18,753 nucleotides of DNA from a virus. Its lineage: Duplodnaviria > Heunggongvirae > Uroviricota > Caudoviricetes. Of this stretch, positions 4,206 to 17,155 are shown piece after piece. The first letter of the stretch is position 1, and each line of letters opens with the position of its first letter. The stretch lies in IMG/VR virus record IMGVR_UViG_2698536576_000004; one strand, 5' to 3'. The notes under the pieces are model-generated. The model was not told where the DNA came from, ran no database searches, and saw nothing but the letters and a program-made list of their open reading frames with translations. Made by a program: the position numbers and the translations under genes.

Positions 4206-4397
4206 TTAAAGACCTGCCGGGATTTCGATATTATCCTGGTGAATAACTTTATCGACCGGGTAACAGTTACCGGGAATTTTCTGTTCGGTTGCTGCAGTCA
4301 TACACTCCTGCATTGTCCTGTGAACACTGACTGCAATATCAACTGGCTCTCCGGAAACAAGAAAAACTGTCAGAACAAGCGCAAATGCTGAATTCAT
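4206..4397 (-). CDS. ydfD: YdfD-like small protein with N-terminal hydrophobic/signal-like segment (Qin lysis-associated protein family)
   Basis: 63-aa product starting 'MNSAFALVLTVFLVSGEPV...'. SD AAGGA 8 nt upstream of ATG (4395-4397). ATGA overlap with the dicB stop suggests translational coupling. Length and position match K-12 ydfD as recalled. Confidence 0.7.
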   Translation of the reverse strand: MNSAFALVLTVFLVSGEPVDIAVSVHRTMQECMTAATEQKIPGNCYPVDKVIHQDNIEIPAGL

Positions 4398-4582
4398 TGT
4401 GCACATCCTTTTGGCATCAGACGTAAACGAGCCAGCATTGAAACAATGCATATTTTATTTAATAGCTCCCGTTCTTGTTTTCTCTTGTTAATGGCATCTT
4501 CAGTAAATACAGGGTTACTGATAGAGACACCAATTTCAAAACAACCTTCAGACGTATTAACGTTTGGTAATAACGTTTTCAT
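4394..4582 (-). CDS. dicB: DicB cell-division inhibitor (MinC-activating), 62 aa
   Basis: 'MKTLLPNVNTSEGCFEIGV...MPKGCAQ', 62 aa, matches my recollection of DicB in length and sequence. SD GAGGA 8 nt upstream of ATG at 4580-4582. Lies ~170 bp downstream of DicF, as in Qin. Confidence 0.8.
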   Translation of the reverse strand: MKTLLPNVNTSEGCFEIGVSISNPVFTEDAINKRKQERELLNKICIVSMLARLRLMPKGCAQ

Positions 4583-4750: not shown

Positions 4751-4809
4751 TAAAAACGGCGGCAGAGCAGTCACGGAGTAAAACTGATACCGCCAAACGT
4801 CACCAGAAA
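4751..4809 (-). ncRNA. dicF: DicF small RNA (ftsZ-targeting sRNA of the dicB operon) with intrinsic terminator hairpin
   Basis: Minus strand reads 5'-TTTCTGGTGACGTTTGGCGGTATCAGTTTTACTCCGTGACTGCTCTGCCGCCGTTTTT-3', essentially identical to the DicF sequence as I remember it, including the GGCGG...GCCGCC stem and U-run. Ends approximate to +/-3 nt. Confidence 0.85.
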
Positions 4810-5085: not shown

Positions 5086-5285
5086 TGACTAAAGAAGAAT
5101 TTGTCTCTTATATTTTTGATAAAACGGTTGAAATGTATGCCGCTACTTACGGGTCCTGTAATCCTCTGAATAAACCAGAGGGGAAAGATGATTTCGACAA
5201 AATTTACCGCTTCTTGGAGGACCGCTATATCAAAAGGTTAGAGGACGCAGGGATCAAATCCCCAGTGAAGTCACCATTGTCCTGA
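5086..5285 (+). CDS. Hypothetical 66-aa protein, antisense-oriented within the leftward early operon
   Basis: ATG at 5086 preceded by AAGGAA with ~7-nt spacing. Product 'MTKEEFVSYIFDKTVEMYAATYG...' has globular-like composition. Overlaps the 3' end of the minus-strand ydfB/C-region ORF by ~30 bp. No homolog recognised. Confidence 0.3.
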
Positions 5286-5631
5286 GAACTTGCAGGACGT
5301 CATGATCGTAACTTCCATCCAAACCGCGACGGCAAATTGCTTCTCGTATTACCGGAAGCAGTTCGCTGGAAATCTCGGTGCATATTTCACCTGCTAATAC
5401 GCCTGGCTCAAGTGAGAATATTGGTGAACTTACGGTCTTGGTCTCGACAGTTTCAGAGTCAGTGCCAACATTATAAAGCTCAACGAAAGCGGTCTTGATT
5501 TTCCGGGCCAGATCTTTTGCTGGCTCGCTTGCAATATCTTTCCCGATTTCTCGCAGCACAGAATGCAATGTATGAGCTGCTGTTTTCTGTACATCAGACG
5601 GTAAATCTTTAAATTCCATCGTCAGCCTCAT
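5254..5631 (-). CDS. Hypothetical early-operon protein (occupies the ydfB/ydfC position of Qin)
   Basis: 125-aa ORF. The ATG at 5629-5631 overlaps the upstream gene stop (TGATG). A second ATG at 5617-5619 has GAGG 9 nt upstream. Same strand and operon as dicA/ydfA/dicB. Confidence 0.55.
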   Translation of the reverse strand: MRLTMEFKDLPSDVQKTAAHTLHSVLREIGKDIASEPAKDLARKIKTAFVELYNVGTDSETVETKTVSSPIFSLEPGVLAGEICTEISSELLPVIREAICRRGLDGSYDHDVLQVLRTMVTSLGI

Positions 5632-5783
5632 CAGTCAGTGTTTCTGGCTAACCAGCAACGCGCGCCAGATTCGGTTTTAAACGTTTTGCTTTTGGTATAT
5701 GTCATCGCGGTGAACGTACCGTCCTGGTTGGGGAACACGCCACATACCAGAGATTCGCTGTTGCCAAGATCGATAGTATCCAT
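5631..5783 (-). CDS. ydfA: YdfA-like small protein (50 aa)
   Basis: 'MDTIDLGNSESLVCGVFPNQDGTFTAMTYTKSKTFKTESGARCWLARNTD'. GAGG 6 nt upstream of ATG at 5781-5783. Size and position (first gene after the operator downstream of dicA) match ydfA. Confidence 0.7.
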   Translation of the reverse strand: MDTIDLGNSESLVCGVFPNQDGTFTAMTYTKSKTFKTESGARCWLARNTD

Positions 5784-5896
5784 GCTGACCTCATTTCCCC
5801 TTAACGCCGGGGTAGCGGAACTGTTTGCTGAGAACACCGTGCGGTGTGTTGATGGAGGTAATTTAGTTTTCTCATTATTTTTCGTCAAGGTTTTTT

Positions 5897-5918
5897 GATG
5901 AGAAAACTCAAGTATTGG
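5897..5918. promoter_or_regulatory. Putative DicA operator at the early-left (dicB operon) promoter
   Basis: 'TGAGAAAACTCAAgTATTGG' is a near-identical copy of the motif in the dicA/dicC intergenic region (6435-6453). Core TTGAG-N4-CTCAA is palindromic. Lies between the dicA stop and the ydfA start. Confidence 0.5.
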
Positions 5919-5975
5919 CGCAAGATAAAGCCAATACATTGAAATGTAAGGCTTTAAAATTTTGTGAAGGGATGA

Positions 5976-6383
5976 TTATTGATGCTTGTTGCGTTTGCGA
6001 GCCTCTAATAGCTCGGTGAACAGGCGATTAAAATTCTCAACGCGGGCGCGGAGTTCGCTGAGTTGTGCTTGTTGCTCTGATTTAGGAAGTGCGCGATACA
6101 AACGCAGCATCTCTAACTCATCTTCCGATAAGTCTAAGGCACTATCGAGTGAAACAGGGGGAGCTGGTGTTTTGTCCTCGTCGCCAAACAGTATCCAGGT
6201 TGGTGAACATTGCAATACCTCGGCGAGGCGATGCAAATTTTGCCCGCGCGGGGCTGTATGGTCACTTTCCCATAATGAAATTGATGAGCCAGATACGCCA
6301 GCAGCTTTGCTTAAACCGTTTTGACTTAAGCCTACCTGCTTACGTCTTTCTCTAATGCGTTGACCTAAAGTTTTCTCGTTCAT
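5976..6383 (-). CDS. dicA: DicA-like HTH (XRE family) prophage repressor
   Basis: 135-aa product from ATG 6381-6383. The '...LQCSPTWILFGDEDK...' block and C-terminal '...RARVENFNRLFTELLEARKRNK' match DicA as recalled. HTH region 'GLSQNGLSKAAGVSGSSISLWE'. An upstream in-frame ATG at 6432-6434 is also possible. Confidence 0.85.
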   Translation of the reverse strand: MNEKTLGQRIRERRKQVGLSQNGLSKAAGVSGSSISLWESDHTAPRGQNLHRLAEVLQCSPTWILFGDEDKTPAPPVSLDSALDLSEDELEMLRLYRALPKSEQQAQLSELRARVENFNRLFTELLEARKRNKHQ

Positions 6384-6404
6384 ATTTAGATATCTTAATA
6401 ACCC

Positions 6405-6453
6405 TTGACTTGAGATTCCTTGAGTGATTAGCATTGAGAAAACTCAATATTGG
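6405..6453. promoter_or_regulatory. Divergent dicA/dicC control region: candidate dicC promoter plus DicA operator
   Basis: TTGACT (6405-6410), 17-bp spacer, TTAGCA (6428-6433) as a weak -10. Palindrome TTGAGAAAACTCAA at 6434-6447 plus additional TTGAG half-sites at 6409-6425. Confidence 0.45.
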
Positions 6454-6460
6454 AGGTGCG

Positions 6461-6688
6461 ATGTTTAAATCAGACGTAATTAATTTTTACGGTACGAAAG
6501 CCAAAGTAGCGAAAGCTGCTGGCGTTGACCCATCTGCTGTTTCTCAATGGCAAGAGCTGGTTCCTGAAGGTCGCGCGATGCGTCTACAGGAGGCATCTGG
6601 CGGCGAGCTTCTGTATGATCCCAAGGTTTATGACGAATATCGTAAGACGAAGCGGGCGGGGCGGTTGAACAATGAAAATCACTCCTGA
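6461..6688 (+). CDS. dicC: DicC-like Cro-type regulator (YdaS/DicC family)
   Basis: 75-aa product from ATG 6461 with GGAGG SD. C-terminal '...LVPEGRAMRLQEASGGEL.YDPKVYDEYRKTKRAGRLNNENHS' matches DicC as recalled. Divergent from dicA. Confidence 0.8.
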   Translation: MFKSDVINFYGTKAKVAKAAGVDPSAVSQWQELVPEGRAMRLQEASGGELLYDPKVYDEYRKTKRAGRLNNENHS

Positions 6689-7193
6689 ACAGGCTCGTGA
6701 GGCTCTGGATGCTTGGATATGTCGACCAGGAATGACACAGGAGCAGGCGACGATATTAATCACTGAAGCATTCTGGGCTTTGAAAGAGCGCCCGAACATC
6801 GATGTTCAGCGTGTCACAGATGAAGGTGGCGCGGTTGATCAGCGAGCGCTTGGCGTTAATCGAGTGAAGATATTCGAACGCTGGAAGGCTATCGACACCA
6901 GGGATAAGCGTGAAAAGTTCACGGCGCTAGTGCCTGCAATTATGGAGGCTATCCGGATTAATGATTTCAGGTTGTATCGTGAAATTAGTGACGGAAAAAG
7001 CATCACGTACATGATCGCCGGGTTAAACAAAGAATATGGCGATGTGGTGGAGTCCGGACTGCTTTTTGCTGATCCTGCCGTAGTGGATCGTGAAACTGAC
7101 GAACTTATAGAAAAAGCAATTGCTTTCAAACTTGCGTATCGACAGCAATACCAACAAAAAGCTGGATGGAATTATGAGCCTTCTTTTTGCTGA
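6672..7193 (+). CDS. YdaT-like protein (functional CII-position protein of Rac/CP-933P-type prophages)
   Basis: 173-aa ORF overlapping the dicC 3' end by 17 nt. Position right after the Cro-like gene and loose similarity to YdaT; assignment from memory, moderate. Confidence 0.55.
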   Translation: MKITPEQAREALDAWICRPGMTQEQATILITEAFWALKERPNIDVQRVTDEGGAVDQRALGVNRVKIFERWKAIDTRDKREKFTALVPAIMEAIRINDFRLYREISDGKSITYMIAGLNKEYGDVVESGLLFADPAVVDRETDELIEKAIAFKLAYRQQYQQKAGWNYEPSFC

Positions 7194-8603: not shown

Positions 8604-10160
8604 ATGAATGCCTATAAATTCAGAAATAATGATGAGATTGGAAAATTAGAGGCGGAAACTGATTCTTATCTTGATGCTTGTTTTTATGAGTCCAATGTTT
8701 TTAAAGGTATTGTGAATTTTGACTCTACTGAGAAGAATCCTGATTTTACAAGAAGAATTATTGTTGGAAGAACAGGAAGCGGTAAGTCTGCGTTGCTTAA
8801 AAAAATATTAGACAAAGGAAATATTAAGCTGCATGACACAATAGAGGCAGAAAATACGATATTTGAACATATTAATAACAATGTGTTTATATCTGATTTG
8901 ATCTCGAAAGGGATAGATTTACGTGGGTTTTATAAATCGTTATGGCTGCATGTATTACTTATGAAAGTTATACCAGCCGTTTATCGTTCTTCCTATCAAA
9001 GCTTTTTTGAGGAAATTAAAGATCTTATTGGTGGTAAGAAGAAACCGTATAAACCAGAAGTTGCGAATGATTATATTGAACAATTTAAAGAAAATTTCTT
9101 CAATGATAAAGCGCTCATTGAAATAAGTAACAAGCTTGAAAGTGATTTGTCATTCAAACTCGGAAATTCCGCTGTTGGTGTGGGTGGTAAAATATCTAAT
9201 TCTGATACAGCCAAAATACAATCAGAAACTTCAAGTTATGTGAGTCGTGAACTTCTTTTTAAACAAAAAGAACTTATTAAAATACTTAAAGAGGAGTTCG
9301 CTGACTCAAACCAGGTTAGAATAGTAATCAGTATCGATGATTTAGATAAATCTTGGTTAAGCACGAGCGCCATCAGATATGACTTTATTAATGCTCTTCT
9401 TGAGGCCTTTCGAGAATTATTAGATATAAAGTCGGTTAAGGTTCTGATATCAATAAGAACAGATATTTTAATGGGAATTTATAAAAGTAGTTTAAGGCAG
9501 GATGAGAAAGATCAATCTTTAATATATTCCATATCATGGAATAAAACGGAAATAAGAGAGATTATTGATGCTAGAATTAACCATTTGGTTAAAAATAGAT
9601 ATCAATCAAATAAGTCTGTATTAATGAAGGATATTTTTAATTTTACAGTTGAAGGTATTGGAGCAGATGATTATATCCTTGACAGAACAATGCTTAGGCC
9701 TAGAGATGCAATTAATTTCGTAAATATATGTCTTTCTGAGTGCGATGGTATGGTTAACATGAATGAAAATATTGTGTTAATTGCCGAAGAGAAATTTTAT
9801 TCATCCAGAAAGAGAGCTTTGGTTACAGAATGGAAAAGCATATATCCGTTTATCGAAGAATATTTGGATGTGCTTTCCTTGATTTCATTTTCTGATTTTA
9901 CAGTCTCAAACATAGGACAAGCAGTAAAAGATGATATATCGCAGCATTTACTTGATAGATTGACTGTAGTTAAAGAGGATGATCAACATACAAAAATATT
10001 GATGAATTTTGAGGAGTTACTTAAAGTCTGGTTCGTCGTAGGCGTGGTTGGCATAAGGAAAACAGCATCTTTAATTATATATTCATCTTTTGATAAACCT
10101 AATTTGGATATTACTGATATGAAGAGAGATTTTGTAATACATCCGTTGTTTGATAGGTAA
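8604..10160 (+). CDS. P-loop NTPase, 518 aa, KAP-like Walker motifs; AT-rich cargo gene, candidate defense/abortive-infection protein
   Basis: Walker A 'GRTGSGKS' (nt 8766-8789). Walker B-like 'RIVISIDDLDK' (IDDLD at nt 9333-9347), resembling the KAP-family hhhhDDLDR. Possible Arg motif 'LRPRDAINF'. Markedly lower GC than flanking genes (by eye, not computed). Preceded by an AT-rich promoter-like region (8500-8600). Confidence 0.85.
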   Translation: MNAYKFRNNDEIGKLEAETDSYLDACFYESNVFKGIVNFDSTEKNPDFTRRIIVGRTGSGKSALLKKILDKGNIKLHDTIEAENTIFEHINNNVFISDLISKGIDLRGFYKSLWLHVLLMKVIPAVYRSSYQSFFEEIKDLIGGKKKPYKPEVANDYIEQFKENFFNDKALIEISNKLESDLSFKLGNSAVGVGGKISNSDTAKIQSETSSYVSRELLFKQKELIKILKEEFADSNQVRIVISIDDLDKSWLSTSAIRYDFINALLEAFRELLDIKSVKVLISIRTDILMGIYKSSLRQDEKDQSLIYSISWNKTEIREIIDARINHLVKNRYQSNKSVLMKDIFNFTVEGIGADDYILDRTMLRPRDAINFVNICLSECDGMVNMNENIVLIAEEKFYSSRKRALVTEWKSIYPFIEEYLDVLSLISFSDFTVSNIGQAVKDDISQHLLDRLTVVKEDDQHTKILMNFEELLKVWFVVGVVGIRKTASLIIYSSFDKPNLDITDMKRDFVIHPLFDR

Positions 10161-10390
10161 TAGCAATGTGAATATGTTGAGACTACTGGAAAAGCTATAA
10201 CTCCTTTAGTAAAGTTTCCGTGGGTGCTTGAGGCTATCTGTCTCAGGCATGAACACCAAAGGCAGATAGAGAAAAGCCCCAGTTAACATTACGCGTCCTG
10301 CAAGACGCTTAACATTAATCTGAGGCCAATTTCATGCTAGACACATGTAGGTTAGCCTCTTACGTGCCGAAAGGCAAGGAGAAGCAGGCT

Positions 10391-10546
10391 ATGAAGCAGC
10401 AAAAGGCGATGTTAATCGCCCTGATCGTCATCTGTTTAACCGTCATAGTGACGGCACTGGTAACGAGGAAAGACCTTTGCGAGGTACGAATCCGAACCGG
10501 CCAGACGGAGGTCGCTGTCTTCACAGCTTACGAACCTGAGGAGTAA
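10391..10546 (+). CDS. hokD: Hok/Gef-family membrane toxin (HokD/RelF-type)
   Basis: 'MKQQKAMLIALIVICLTVIVTALVTRKDLCEVRIRTGQTEVAVFTAYEPEE', 51 aa, matches HokD/RelF as recalled. SD AAGGAGAAG upstream. In-frame upstream extension from 10334 not annotated separately. Confidence 0.9.
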   Translation: MKQQKAMLIALIVICLTVIVTALVTRKDLCEVRIRTGQTEVAVFTAYEPEE

Positions 10547-10762: not shown

Positions 10763-11014
10763 ATGATGAACATCGAAGAACTGCGTAAAATTTTTTGTGA
10801 AGATGGCCTCTATGCTGTGTGCGTTGAAAATGGAAATCTTGTTAGTCATTACCGCATTATGTGTTTGCGAAAGAATGGGGCTGCGTTAATTAATTTTGTG
10901 GATGGTCGAGTGACAGACGGATTTATCTTGCGCGAAGGTGAGTTTGTCACTTCATTACAGGCACTGAAAGAGATCGGAATAAAAGCAGGCTTTTCAGCTT
11001 TTGCAGAAGAATAA
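10763..11014 (+). CDS. rem: Rem-like small prophage protein (function unknown)
   Basis: 83-aa ORF. GGAAGGA SD 5 nt upstream of ATG. Position immediately downstream of hokD matches Qin rem (83 aa); identity assigned from memory of gene order and size. Confidence 0.6.
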   Translation: MMNIEELRKIFCEDGLYAVCVENGNLVSHYRIMCLRKNGAALINFVDGRVTDGFILREGEFVTSLQALKEIGIKAGFSAFAEE

Positions 11015-13684: not shown

Positions 13685-13851
13685 GACTGCGTCGGTTTGA
13701 AGAACAGACGATATACGAAGTAGTTTACTAAAGCAGTTCTCATTTCAGGTGTTATTCACTTATTCCTTCTTTGAGTCTCTCCAATTAAGTACGAAGTCGT
13801 TTCTGTTATGCAAACCATTTATGCCGAAAGGCTCAAGTTAAGGAATGTAGA

Positions 13852-14067
13852 ATGTCAAATAAAATGACTGGTTTAGTAAAATGGTTTAACGCTGATAAAG
13901 GTTTCGGCTTTATTTCTCCTGTTGATGGTAGTAAAGATGTGTTTGTGCATTTTTCTGCGATTCAGAATGATAATTATCGAACCTTATTTGAAGGTCAAAA
14001 GGTTACCTTCTCTATAGAGAGTGGTGCTAAAGGTCCTGCAGCAGCAAATGTCATCATTACTGATTAA
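13852..14067 (+). CDS. cspB: Cold-shock protein (CspA family), CspB-like
   Basis: '[38 protein letters not shown]...' with RNP1 'KGFGFI' and RNP2 'VFVHF' motifs. 71 aa. AAGGA SD 7 nt upstream. Confidence 0.9.
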
Positions 14068-14348
14068 AATTCATCGCTCGTCTGTATACGATAACGAAGA
14101 AGGCTGATGCCTGAGTAGAGATACGGACAGAGTAGTGAATATTGGATCTCTTTAATAAAAAGTAAGGAGGTCCAATACATGAAACAATGGCTAGCATATT
14201 TGGCAAAATCTTAATCAGGAAAAGTATGCTAACCATTGTGGTGAAGTGCAGGTTTGCTGCATGAATAGTTTTACAGCAGAAGCTAACTGCTGGCATGGCA
14301 AAACAAAGTGCGTAAGTGGATGACTCCCACAAAAAGCACCACAATCTC

Positions 14349-16586: not shown

Positions 16587-16737
16587 GGTGTTCTGGTTTG
16601 TTACAAATTTATCTGAAGCAGTCATTGTTATAATTTTATTATTTGTACCTCTTGAGATTTCCTTGTTGGTTTTTCTCTCTGATATTTTTTTTCGGACCAT
16701 TCTGCCCAAGGGCTAATTTCTTCAAAAGGTAATAATT

Positions 16738-16950
16738 ATGTCTAACAAAATGACTGGTTTAGTGAAATGGTTTAACCCTGAAAAAGGTTTTGGTTTCATC
16801 ACGCCGAAAGATGGCAGCAAAGATGTGTTTGTCCATTTCTCAGCAATTCAGAGCAACGATTTCAAAACATTAACTGAGAATCAGGAAGTTGAATTTGGTA
16901 TTGAGAACGGACCTAAAGGTCCTGCCGCTGTTCATGTAGTGGCGCTTTGA
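16738..16950 (+). CDS. cspI: Cold-shock protein (CspA family), CspI-like
   Basis: '[70 protein letters not shown]', 70 aa, with RNP1/RNP2 motifs. AAGGT SD 7 nt upstream. Confidence 0.9.
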
Positions 16951-17155
16951 GGTAGACAATATTACAAACCATATTCACTTTAGATGCCCGTGTTGTCATG
17001 GTTCCCAGTATAGAACATCATCTTTTGATGTTTCTGACATGAATCCTTTCGGGGCAAAATGTATCTTTTGTAAATCAATGATGATTACATTTGATAATAT
17101 TTCACAATACTTAAATGCCAGCCGTCTGTCGTTGGATTTAAAAAAGTGAAAATGA

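Follow-up and report, generated by a model that had tools for sequence, protein, structure and literature searches.

Palindromic sites flanking a DicA-type repressor gene in a Qin-site prophage of Escherichia coli as probable repressor operators

The two intergenic regions that flank the DicA-type repressor gene in a Qin-site lambdoid prophage of a non-K-12 Escherichia coli share a short palindrome, and the copies of this palindrome are very probably the operators at which the repressor binds, an assignment that we infer from sequence comparison. The window analysed here is the whole available stretch of this prophage, 18,753 nucleotides in length. An earlier, sequence-only reading of it had accounted for repression with two palindromic sites; at least four are present, and those at 5861-5874 and 6383-6400 had been overlooked.

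The immunity region and its repeated palindrome

The repressor gene (5976..6383, minus strand, PGAP coordinates) encodes a protein of 135 amino acids that matches the NCBIfam family NF007257, 'transcriptional repressor DicA', along residues 1-135 (239 bits against a cut-off of 101), contains an HTH_3 domain (Pfam, 2e-15) and is 57% identical to K-12 DicA by BLASTP over 127 aligned residues (5-131), which is nearly the whole protein. Its best solved relative is the N-terminal domain of the P22 c2 repressor (E about 1e-15), with the similarity ending at residue 72. Pfam gives helix-turn-helix families only for this protein, in which the S24 (LexA-like) self-cleavage domain is absent, and RecA-mediated cleavage is therefore not expected. 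A longer product of 152 amino acids, given in the phage record, is disfavoured because PGAP and K-12 DicA both give 135 amino acids and the codon at the upstream start position is ATA in Buttiauxella ferragutiae. On the opposite strand, 77 bp from the repressor ATG, lies a DicC/P22-Cro-type gene of 75 codons (6461..6688, plus strand), whose product is recognised by NCBIfam NF007282 (DicC; 165 bits against a cut-off of 130) and by Pfam P22_Cro (3e-16) and is 70% identical to K-12 DicC, the differences clustering in the helix-turn-helix. Just downstream of it is a gene of the CII-like YdaT family (6672-7193). In the other direction, a leftward operon on the minus strand starts with ydfA (5631..5783; Pfam DUF1391, 4e-27; PGAP) and contains the DicF small RNA (4757..4808; Rfam RF00039, 72.5 bits against a gathering score of 48), the cell-division inhibitor gene dicB (4394..4582; PGAP annotation of an identical record and translation of the open reading frame) and ydfD (PGAP).

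The 13-mer TGAGAAAACTCAA occurs exactly at 5899-5911 and at 6435-6447, as the earlier reading had stated, and is the longest word common to the two spacers, dicA-ydfA (5784-5975) and dicA-dicC (6384-6460); a common word of such length appeared in 2 of 5000 dinucleotide-preserving shuffles of both spacers, and the shared core thus exceeds chance. It is part of a palindrome, TTGAG-AAAA-CTCAA, made of two 5-bp half-sites separated by 4 bp. There is also a strong third copy, ATGAGAAAACTAAA on the minus strand at 5861-5874, so that TGAGAAAACTCA, one mismatch being allowed, occurs three times in the window (0.145 expected). The complete 45-kb phage HannyBb has an identical immunity module, with the same repressor, and at this threshold contains these same three copies and no others. 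When up to three mismatches are allowed, the 13-mer matches 16 times in the window (9.5 expected; 16 was reached in 3 of 200 shuffles). A literature search for the motif itself returned seven matches, each of them unrelated (primers or other genes).

The core had also been described as carrying an identical TATTGG extension in both places. These letters are indeed present, directly after the core at 6448-6453 and after one additional g at 5913-5918, but they are not conserved; the shared extension is a coincidence and was rejected as part of the operator. On the dicB side other E. coli sub-alleles read TATTTAA and Buttiauxella also differs, while on the dicC side the core is followed by TAT, GCC or CTT in E. 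coli sub-alleles, in which the ribosome-binding stretch TGGAGG, to which the TGG of TATTGG belongs, is the only constant element after the core.

Candidate operators at the two promoters

A consensus scan of positions 5600-6700 found only two promoter-like matches, and palindromic sites abut or overlap both of them. The leftward one, TTGACG-17-TAAATT (5860..5888, minus strand), is the predicted promoter of the dicB operon (dicBp, the PL analogue). It lies between the stop codon of the repressor gene and ydfA, with ydfA, DicF and dicB downstream on the same strand, which agrees with the earlier proposal that the operon has its own promoter downstream of the repressor gene. Its -35 is conserved in the alignment, and identical hexamers occupy the equivalent place in a Stenotrophomonas phage. 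Two predicted operators are associated with it. The OL-distal operator, TGATGAGAAAACTCAAGT (5896..5913), contains the exact 13-mer within a core (5898-5911) that has 13/14 palindrome matches, and is located 9 bp upstream of the -35. The OL-proximal operator, TAATGAGAAAACTAAATT on the minus strand (5860..5877), differs from the 13-mer by one mismatch and occupies the promoter spacer together with the first four bases of the -10. It is the best-placed site for repression of the dicB operon. It is unchanged in Buttiauxella and in E. coli sub-alleles, in which the adjacent spacer is scrambled, and the OL-distal operator shows single changes in E. coli sub-alleles.

Between the repressor stop codon and dicBp a stem-loop is predicted at 5926..5956 (minus strand; fold z-score of -3.3 against shuffles), the sequence of which is invariant in E. 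coli sub-alleles. It is probably a terminator or insulator between dicA and dicBp, an assignment that remains tentative because a strict terminator scan made no call. Another candidate, an 8-bp hairpin formed by GTATTGGC and GCCAATAC (5912-5937) that would act as a terminator with the operator as its U-tract, was rejected, being absent from the minimum-free-energy fold and not conserved. For the ydfA leader, the consensus fold across classes is a weak 4-pair helix only, which reflects a poor alignment.

The rightward promoter, that of the Cro-like gene (dicCp-like, TTGACT-18-TAGCAT, 6405..6434, plus strand), is sigma-70-like; the homologous dicC promoter of K-12 reads TTGACT-17-TATCTT, and the 5' terminus of dicC mRNA mapped by 5'RACE is consistent with the assigned consensus sigma-70 promoter (Yun et al. 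2012, PMC3441716). The OR1-like operator of this spacer, CATTGAGAAAACTCAATA (6432..6449), is an exact copy. Its core (6434-6447) begins on the final base of the -10 and extends over the predicted transcription start, and the operator takes the position that Oc has in K-12. The flanks of the core vary, but the core itself is the same in Buttiauxella and in diverged E. coli sub-alleles. A second, OR3-like operator, TATTTAGATATCTTAATA (6383..6400), is predicted where it abuts the repressor ATG (6381-6383). With a matrix built from the other sites only it scores 16.9, the maximum elsewhere in the window being 8.8; it is 100% conserved in Buttiauxella, and a clear own-type operator is found at the equivalent place in two of the other repressor classes described below, D and E. 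It is likely a site for autoregulation by the repressor or for Cro-type shut-off of the repressor gene.

The additional TTGAG half-sites that had been noted in this spacer are present at 6410-6414 and 6420-6424, and lie within a candidate weak OR2-like operator, ACTTGAGATTCCTTGAGT (6408..6425). This sequence overlaps the dicC-promoter spacer and the first three bases of the -35 hexamer (6405-6410), and its centre is 24 and 25 bp away from those of the OR1-like and OR3-like sites, as in lambda. However, its matrix score of 6.1 is within the background and its second half-site is not conserved, reading TTGCG in Buttiauxella and, of two E. coli sub-alleles compared, TTGGG in one, and a middle operator was therefore not retained.

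Co-variation with the repressor and alternative explanations

In Buttiauxella, whose repressor is 73-76% identical, TGAGTTTTCTCA (at the OL-distal operator) and TGAGAAAACTAA are invariant islands in otherwise diverged spacers. A wider comparison was based on eight loci from a scan of one genome per species, supplemented from a phage collection. Across a range that runs from E. coli to a Stenotrophomonas phage, the three promoter positions stay the same and each of four recognition-helix classes has a palindrome of its own there, an own-type site occupying the OL-proximal position in all classes. The spacing of 35-37 bp between the left-hand sites is conserved over the same range. An unbiased search for the best 14-mer shared by the two spacers recovered a class-specific motif in the same relative places in each of eight loci. 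When motifs and spacers were crossed, the own-class match had 0-3 mismatches and those of other classes 4-6, with the exception of class C; in classes D and E the recognition helix (AHVTISQW) is the same, and so is the operator. The pairs of helix and half-site (VSNVAISQW/TTAAG, VSGSSISLW/TTGAG, ISHVSVSQW/TTAGT and VAHVTISQW/TTAGA) form a natural series that might conceivably be used as a specificity code for repressors of the P22 helix-turn-helix type.

The exception, class C (Citrobacter braakii), matches its own spacer at 4 mismatches, while class A cores match it at 2-3. It has the TTGAG half-site and the DicC helix in common with class A (DRSAVSQW, close to DPSAVSQW) and differs from it in the DicA helix, so that part of the co-variation signal could follow DicC and not DicA. 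DicC helices also differ by class elsewhere (RLASLYSW in B, RLASVAAW in D, KAPTVYAW in E). This opens the alternative that the Cro-like DicC is the main or sole protein to recognise the palindromes, the DicA-type repressor using other determinants. We consider this improbable, since in K-12 it is DicA that binds Oc at the dicC promoter in vivo, where it also activates its own gene, and a single base change in Oc abolishes the binding (PMC3441716). Moreover, one report on K-12 describes that DicA represses both dicBp, which is derepressed 22-fold on deletion of dicA, and dicC, and that deletion of dicC has no effect on dicBp (Ragunathan & Vanderpool 2023, PMC10448788). In addition, the operators have the geometry of those of the P22 c2 repressor (PMC5175364), which among proteins of solved structure is the nearest relative of the DicA N-terminal domain. 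Because the repressor and Cro proteins of P22 and lambda share their operators, recognition by DicC would complement recognition by the DicA-type repressor more than compete with it.

Three other explanations are each less probable still. The sites could belong to the CII-like protein YdaT, given that in the Rac prophage the corresponding spacer contains inverted repeats bound by YdaT homologues (PMC11879457). However, the known YdaT box, TTGATT-N6-AATCAA, is absent near the immunity region (a scan of the window gave one match at 2 mismatches, at 13771, which is below chance expectation), and K-12 Qin has the same operator architecture with ydfX and ydfW, and no annotated YdaT gene, beside dicC. 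Action at the RNA level, as the U-tail of a dicA terminator or as an element of the dicC leader, would fit the presence of the 6434-6447 copy within the predicted dicC leader and the fact that 5898-5911 reads UUGAGUUUUCUC on the dicA strand, directly after the possible 8-bp hairpin, GUAUUGGC...GCCAAUAC. That hairpin is nevertheless not conserved in E. coli sub-alleles or in Buttiauxella, the terminator scan called none, the 5861-5874 copy is promoter DNA upstream of the predicted start, and the copies occur in both orientations, as is predicted for a DNA palindrome. Finally, chance similarity or a non-functional relic of duplication, for which it may be said that both spacers are A+T-rich and that the 13-mer is barely enriched at up to three mismatches, appears effectively refuted by the 2/5000 shuffles, by the confinement of the similarity to the palindrome, which argues against duplication, by the persistence of the sites in Buttiauxella and in E. 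coli alleles amid changing neighbours, and by the different palindrome that each repressor class has at the same three positions.

Relation to known switches, proposed mechanism and significance

This prophage shares with K-12 Qin the chromosomal site next to rspAB/ynfA, the gene order (divergent dicC and dicA, then ydfA ... dicF, dicB, ydfD), the palindrome right after the dicC -10, the separate promoter after dicA and the arrangement of the left sites, of which one precedes the -35 and the other occupies the spacer and -10 (in K-12, NC_000913 1648375-1648394 and 1648411-1648430). The two differ in the recognition helix (VSGSSISLW here, ISHVSVSQW in K-12) and in the operator (TTGAG-AAAA-CTCAA here, TTGTTAG-TCATAA-CTAACAA in K-12), and hetero-immunity is therefore expected. 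The prophage studied here is, in addition, far less decayed than Qin of K-12, having retained int, xis and the exonuclease gene, and replication-region genes follow its immunity module. In K-12, operators have been described in both intergenic regions, as stated in a report that cites Bejar et al. 1988 (PMC10448788). In the dicA-dicC spacer only Oc is bound by DicA in vivo and two weaker sites are not (PMC3441716), so that the weaker sites at 6383-6400 and 6408-6425 may not be bound alone here. The DicA site at dicB is given as low-evidence and of unknown location in the RegulonDB-derived curation quoted by Reg-Seq (PMC7567609); going by that listing, even the left-hand operators of K-12 rest on sequence and genetics.

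The resemblance to P22 immC resides in the repressor N-terminal domain, homologous along residues 1-72 (PDB 2R1J, 1ADR), in the P22_Cro family of the Cro-like protein and in the operator. The P22 operator has TTAAG half-sites 4 bp apart, with the consensus ATTTAAGATATCTTAAAT, which is identical in its 5-4-5 geometry and close to the TATTTAGATATCTTAATA of 6383-6400 (PMC5175364). At its third base the half-site has G here (TTGAG) and A in P22 (TTAAG), and the contact residues Asn32, Val33, Ala34 and Gln37 of P22 are replaced by Gly, Ser, Ser and Leu, respectively; in contrast to P22 c2, the present repressor has no S24 domain. The left promoter also differs, having two sites that bracket the -35 here. 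The OL region of P22 is a contiguous triple operator. Lambda offers the logic of the bistable switch, with divergent repressor and Cro genes, multiple operators between them at neighbouring distances of 24-25 bp and a second operator set in control of the early-left promoter. Unlike in lambda, the C-terminal domain of the repressor is unrelated and not expected to undergo RecA cleavage, only two strong left-hand sites are present, and the left promoter immediately follows the repressor gene in the same direction, which makes an insulator between them necessary. The RacR/YdaS/YdaT region of Rac likewise has divergent genes for a repressor and a Cro-like protein, with a YdaT-family gene after them (PMC11879457), and differs in its repressor RacR and in its operators.

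In the proposed mechanism, the 135-amino-acid repressor, with its P22-c2-like helix-turn-helix and non-cleavable C-terminal domain, would bind the palindromes, most likely as a dimer and possibly with cooperativity. Since the strongest site (6434-6447) begins on the final base of the -10, repressor bound there would block RNA polymerase at the promoter of the Cro-like gene. If K-12 DicA at Oc is taken as a guide, it would probably also stimulate the weak promoter of the repressor gene. The site at 6383-6400 would let excess repressor or Cro-like protein shut off the repressor gene, the DicC/Cro-type protein probably binding the same sites, as in P22 and lambda. On the left, occupation of the two sites, 36 bp apart and bracketing the -35 of the separate promoter, would silence the early-left operon ydfA-dicF-dicB-exonuclease-xis-int. 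Control of both the Cro-like and the dicB-operon promoters by one repressor, as had been proposed, is thus supported by the anatomy of the region and by K-12 genetics, binding by this particular allele being our inference. It has further been considered, as a rather unlikely addition, that repressor at 5896-5913 together with the stem-loop at 5926-5956 forms a roadblock to read-through of the repressor transcript into dicF and dicB, in which case the left pair of sites would serve both promoter occlusion and insulation.

In all, this is an ordinary variant of the DicA/DicC/dicBp switch with a different recognition sequence. Conceptually it is nothing new, because the design of the switch was, according to the later report cited above, described in 1988 for the Qin prophage of E. 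coli K-12, and it is of modest practical use. The module is widespread: the OR-specific segment is present in 797 and the OL-specific segment in 791 of 5426 complete E. coli genomes (about 15%), near-equal counts that fit the two being inherited as a single module. Even so, the repressor has no annotation beyond 'helix-turn-helix domain-containing protein', and the operators are unannotated. The comparison also locates the likely DicA sites at dicBp of K-12 (NC_000913 1648375-1648394 and 1648411-1648430), for which the quoted curation gives the location as unknown (PMC7567609). Knowledge of the operators may allow the prediction of hetero-immune Qin-type prophages and phages, and indicates where dicF and dicB, with their effects on cell division, resistance to phage and the regulation of virulence, are kept silent.

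A repeated palindrome at two predicted promoters

The interval between 5600 and 6700 encodes a 135-aa repressor (5976-6383, minus strand), a divergent Cro-like protein (6461-6688, plus strand) and the YdfA protein (5631-5783, minus strand), with the Rfam-detected DicF RNA (4757-4808, minus strand) and dicB (4394-4582, minus strand) located further to the left. The repressor scores 239 bits against the NCBIfam "transcriptional repressor DicA" model (cut-off 101) and the Cro-like protein 165 bits against the DicC model (cut-off 130), and their identities to the K-12 proteins DicA and DicC are 57% and 70%, respectively. The sequence-only reading had described a 13-bp palindromic operator duplicated on either side of the repressor gene, and exact copies of TGAGAAAACTCAA indeed occur at 5899-5911 and 6435-6447; the TATTGG and TTGAG sequences it reported also match the window. 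This 13-mer is the longest word common to both intergenic spacers; only 2 of 5000 dinucleotide-preserving shuffles gave a shared word as long. The window holds three copies with at most one mismatch against 0.145 expected. The third, ATGAGAAAACTAAA (5861-5874, minus strand), had been overlooked. Escherichia phage HannyBb encodes an identical repressor, and its complete 45-kb genome has only these same three copies at up to one mismatch.

A position matrix trained on nine class A sites from the window and two Buttiauxella loci identified a fourth site outside the training set, TATTTAGATATCTTAATA at 6383-6400, which scores 16.9 versus a best score of 8.8 elsewhere in the window. The region 6408-6425, which covers the "extra half-sites" proposed earlier, scores 6.1, which is background level. 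Whether 6408-6425 acts as a middle right-hand site is uncertain, as is the role of the fourth site. The TATTGG extension falls outside the site, since the bases following the right-hand core vary (TAT, GCC or CTT) and in E. coli sub-alleles the left-hand site runs on into TATTTAA.

By consensus scan, the stretch 5600-6700 contains exactly two promoter-like sites, TTGACT-18-TAGCAT (6405-6434, plus strand) and TTGACG-17-TAAATT (5888-5860, minus strand), the latter between the repressor stop codon and ydfA. The palindrome at 6434-6447 begins at the end of the plus-strand -10 element, that at 5898-5911 lies 9 bp upstream of the minus-strand -35 element, and the copy at 5861-5874 occupies the spacer and first four -10 bases of the minus-strand promoter. 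Centre-to-centre distances are 49 bp between the right-hand site (6432-6449) and the fourth site (6383-6400), 36 bp within the left-hand pair (5896-5913 and 5860-5877) and 536 bp from right to left.

Co-variation of predicted operator and recognition helix

Relatives were drawn from one genome per species, phage records and diverged E. coli alleles. In two Buttiauxella species the repressors are 73-76% identical to that of the window, with an unchanged recognition helix; their spacers have diverged and the invariant elements are TGAGTTTTCTCA(A), TGAGAAAACTAA, the -35 hexamers and the 20 bp preceding the repressor ATG. An E. coli sub-allele with a left spacer 80-90% identical occurs in about 200 genomes, and in the two E. 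coli sub-alleles examined the proximal left-hand site and the right-hand palindrome are unaltered, the interval from the proximal operator to the -35 is scrambled, and the distal site differs by single substitutions.

A change of recognition helix goes together with a change of palindrome, and the three promoter positions that carry the palindrome stay the same. The window and Buttiauxella (class A) combine helix VSGSSISLW with operator TTGAG-N4-CTCAA; K-12 and Citrobacter sp. (class B), ISHVSVSQW with TTGTTAGTCATAACTAACAA and relatives; Citrobacter braakii (class C), ISHATISLW with TTGTTAAATAAACTCAACAA; and phage PPompW and a Stenotrophomonas phage (classes D and E) have in common both helix VAHVTISQW and operator (C/G)TTAGATTTT(C/T)CTAA(G/C). 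For each of the eight loci, the best 14-mer common to both spacers was sought without bias, and every time the class motif emerged at a corresponding offset. When right-hand cores were compared with left spacers, 0-3 mismatches were found within a class and 4-6 between classes, except for class C because of the TTGAG half-site it has in common with class A. Such co-variation is the pattern that would be expected of repressor operators. The helix-turn-helix of DicC also differs from class to class, in step with these changes, as would be expected if DicC uses the same sites, and in class C there is some ambiguity, as the TTGAG half-site could follow either DicA or DicC.

In Citrobacter braakii (locus L007; 2410-2500 and 2905-3000) the DicC recognition helix is nearly that of the window and the operators contain one TTGAG half-site. 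The other half-site and the DicA helix look like the K-12 type (TTGTT...AACAA), which points to a hybrid immunity allele that may have arisen by recombination inside the operator/helix module.

Repressor start, transcript features and neighbouring genes

In the HannyBb record the repressor starts at an upstream ATG (152 aa, window 6434; 6384-6434, minus strand), which would put the start codon within the operator. The repressor is 135 aa in PGAP and in K-12 DicA, and in Buttiauxella ferragutiae the upstream codon reads ATA; the shorter form is therefore favoured. By Pfam the repressor has no S24 peptidase domain, and SOS cleavage is therefore not expected, as for K-12 DicA. An identical genome record annotates rem at about 10763-11014 (plus strand). 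Since Rem is an antirepressor of K-12 DicA that relieves repression of the dicB-operon promoter, dicBp (PMC10448788), rem is a candidate route of induction for this non-cleavable repressor.

Just past the repressor stop codon lies a stem-loop (5926-5956, minus strand; UAAAGCC.UACAU....AUGUA..GGCUUUA) that folds much more stably than shuffled sequence (z = -3.3) and is invariant in the diverged E. coli sub-alleles. A strict terminator scan made no terminator call here; the structure is a possible insulator that would keep the repressor transcript from reading through into the dicB promoter. The ydfA leader (5784-5855, minus strand), from the predicted dicB-operon start to ydfA, is conserved and contains, in order, CATCAA, a hairpin (ACACCG-CA-CGGTGT, about 5834-5851), GTTCCGCTACCCC-GGCGTTAA-GGGG and the ribosome-binding site; the first hairpin has another sequence in Buttiauxella and Citrobacter in which pairing is still possible (AATCACT...AGTGATT).

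The 5600-6700 interval is 100% identical to the chromosomes of E. coli strain LH85-a and many other non-K-12 strains. In the LH85-a record it sits within a lambdoid prophage inserted beside rspAB/ynfA, the Qin site, with the gene order integrase, excisionase, exonuclease, ydfD, dicB, two hypothetical-protein genes, DUF1391 (ydfA), a "helix-turn-helix domain-containing protein", a divergent "Cro/CI family" gene, a YdaT-family gene, a hypothetical protein matching the replication initiation O-like protein so named in HannyBb, another helix-turn-helix gene, a P-loop ATPase, hokD, rem, ydfU and the antiterminator gene ydfT. Downstream of ydfA, where K-12 has ydfB/ydfC, a 125-aa ORF (5254-5631, minus strand) matches PHROG 33007 (unknown function) and no Pfam family. 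The 518-aa P-loop ATPase (8604-10160, plus strand; Sll1717 family in PGAP), located between the replication-region genes and hokD/sok, has no match in a PADLOC search and may be prophage cargo or a defence-like gene; HannyBb carries different genes at this position. Rfam detects the sok antitoxin RNA beside hokD and two cspA-type thermoregulator leaders, at cspB and in the cspF region (10222-10396, 13691-14083 and 16592-16977), which are typical Qin-type prophage cargo.

Relation to the P22 and K-12 switches

Among solved structures, the closest relative of the first 72 residues of the repressor is the DNA-binding domain of the P22 c2 repressor (1ADR, 2R1J; E about 1e-15). In the alignment P22 Asn32, Val33, Ala34 and Gln37 are replaced by Gly, Ser, Ser and Leu, changes that would fit an altered specificity for the third base of the half-site. 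The P22 operator consensus, ATTTAAGATATCTTAAAT, has TTAAG half-sites 4 bp apart (PMC5175364), the same 5-4-5 layout as in the window, where the half-sites are TTGAG; the fourth window site (TTTAG-ATAT-CTTAA) comes very close to the P22 consensus itself.

In K-12, DicA represses dicC and dicBp, a promoter that closely follows dicA and precedes ydfA (PMC10448788), and both intergenic regions were noted to contain operators resembling the lambda PR and PL operators (Bejar et al., 1988, cited through PMC10448788). The K-12 operator at the dicC promoter, Oc (TTGTTAGTCATAACTAACAA), overlaps the dicC -10 element; DicA binds it and activates its own gene, and neither of two weaker sites in the dicA-dicC spacer bound DicA by itself (PMC3441716). 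The K-12 Qin sequence aligns with the window site for site and has the same design, and the proposal that one repressor controls both the Cro-like gene and a separate dicB-operon promoter is therefore correct as a prediction of a known design, being a rediscovery of that of Qin. Judging from the sequences compared, the recognition sequence is what sets this allele apart; a literature search found no paper with the motif in a DicA-type operator context. One curated source gives the location of the DicA site at dicB as unknown (PMC7567609), and the comparison of the window with K-12 resolves it by inference. In all, the palindromes are predicted repressor operators, with at least four sites, of what would be a version of the well-known DicA/DicC (P22-like) immunity switch with a new specificity.
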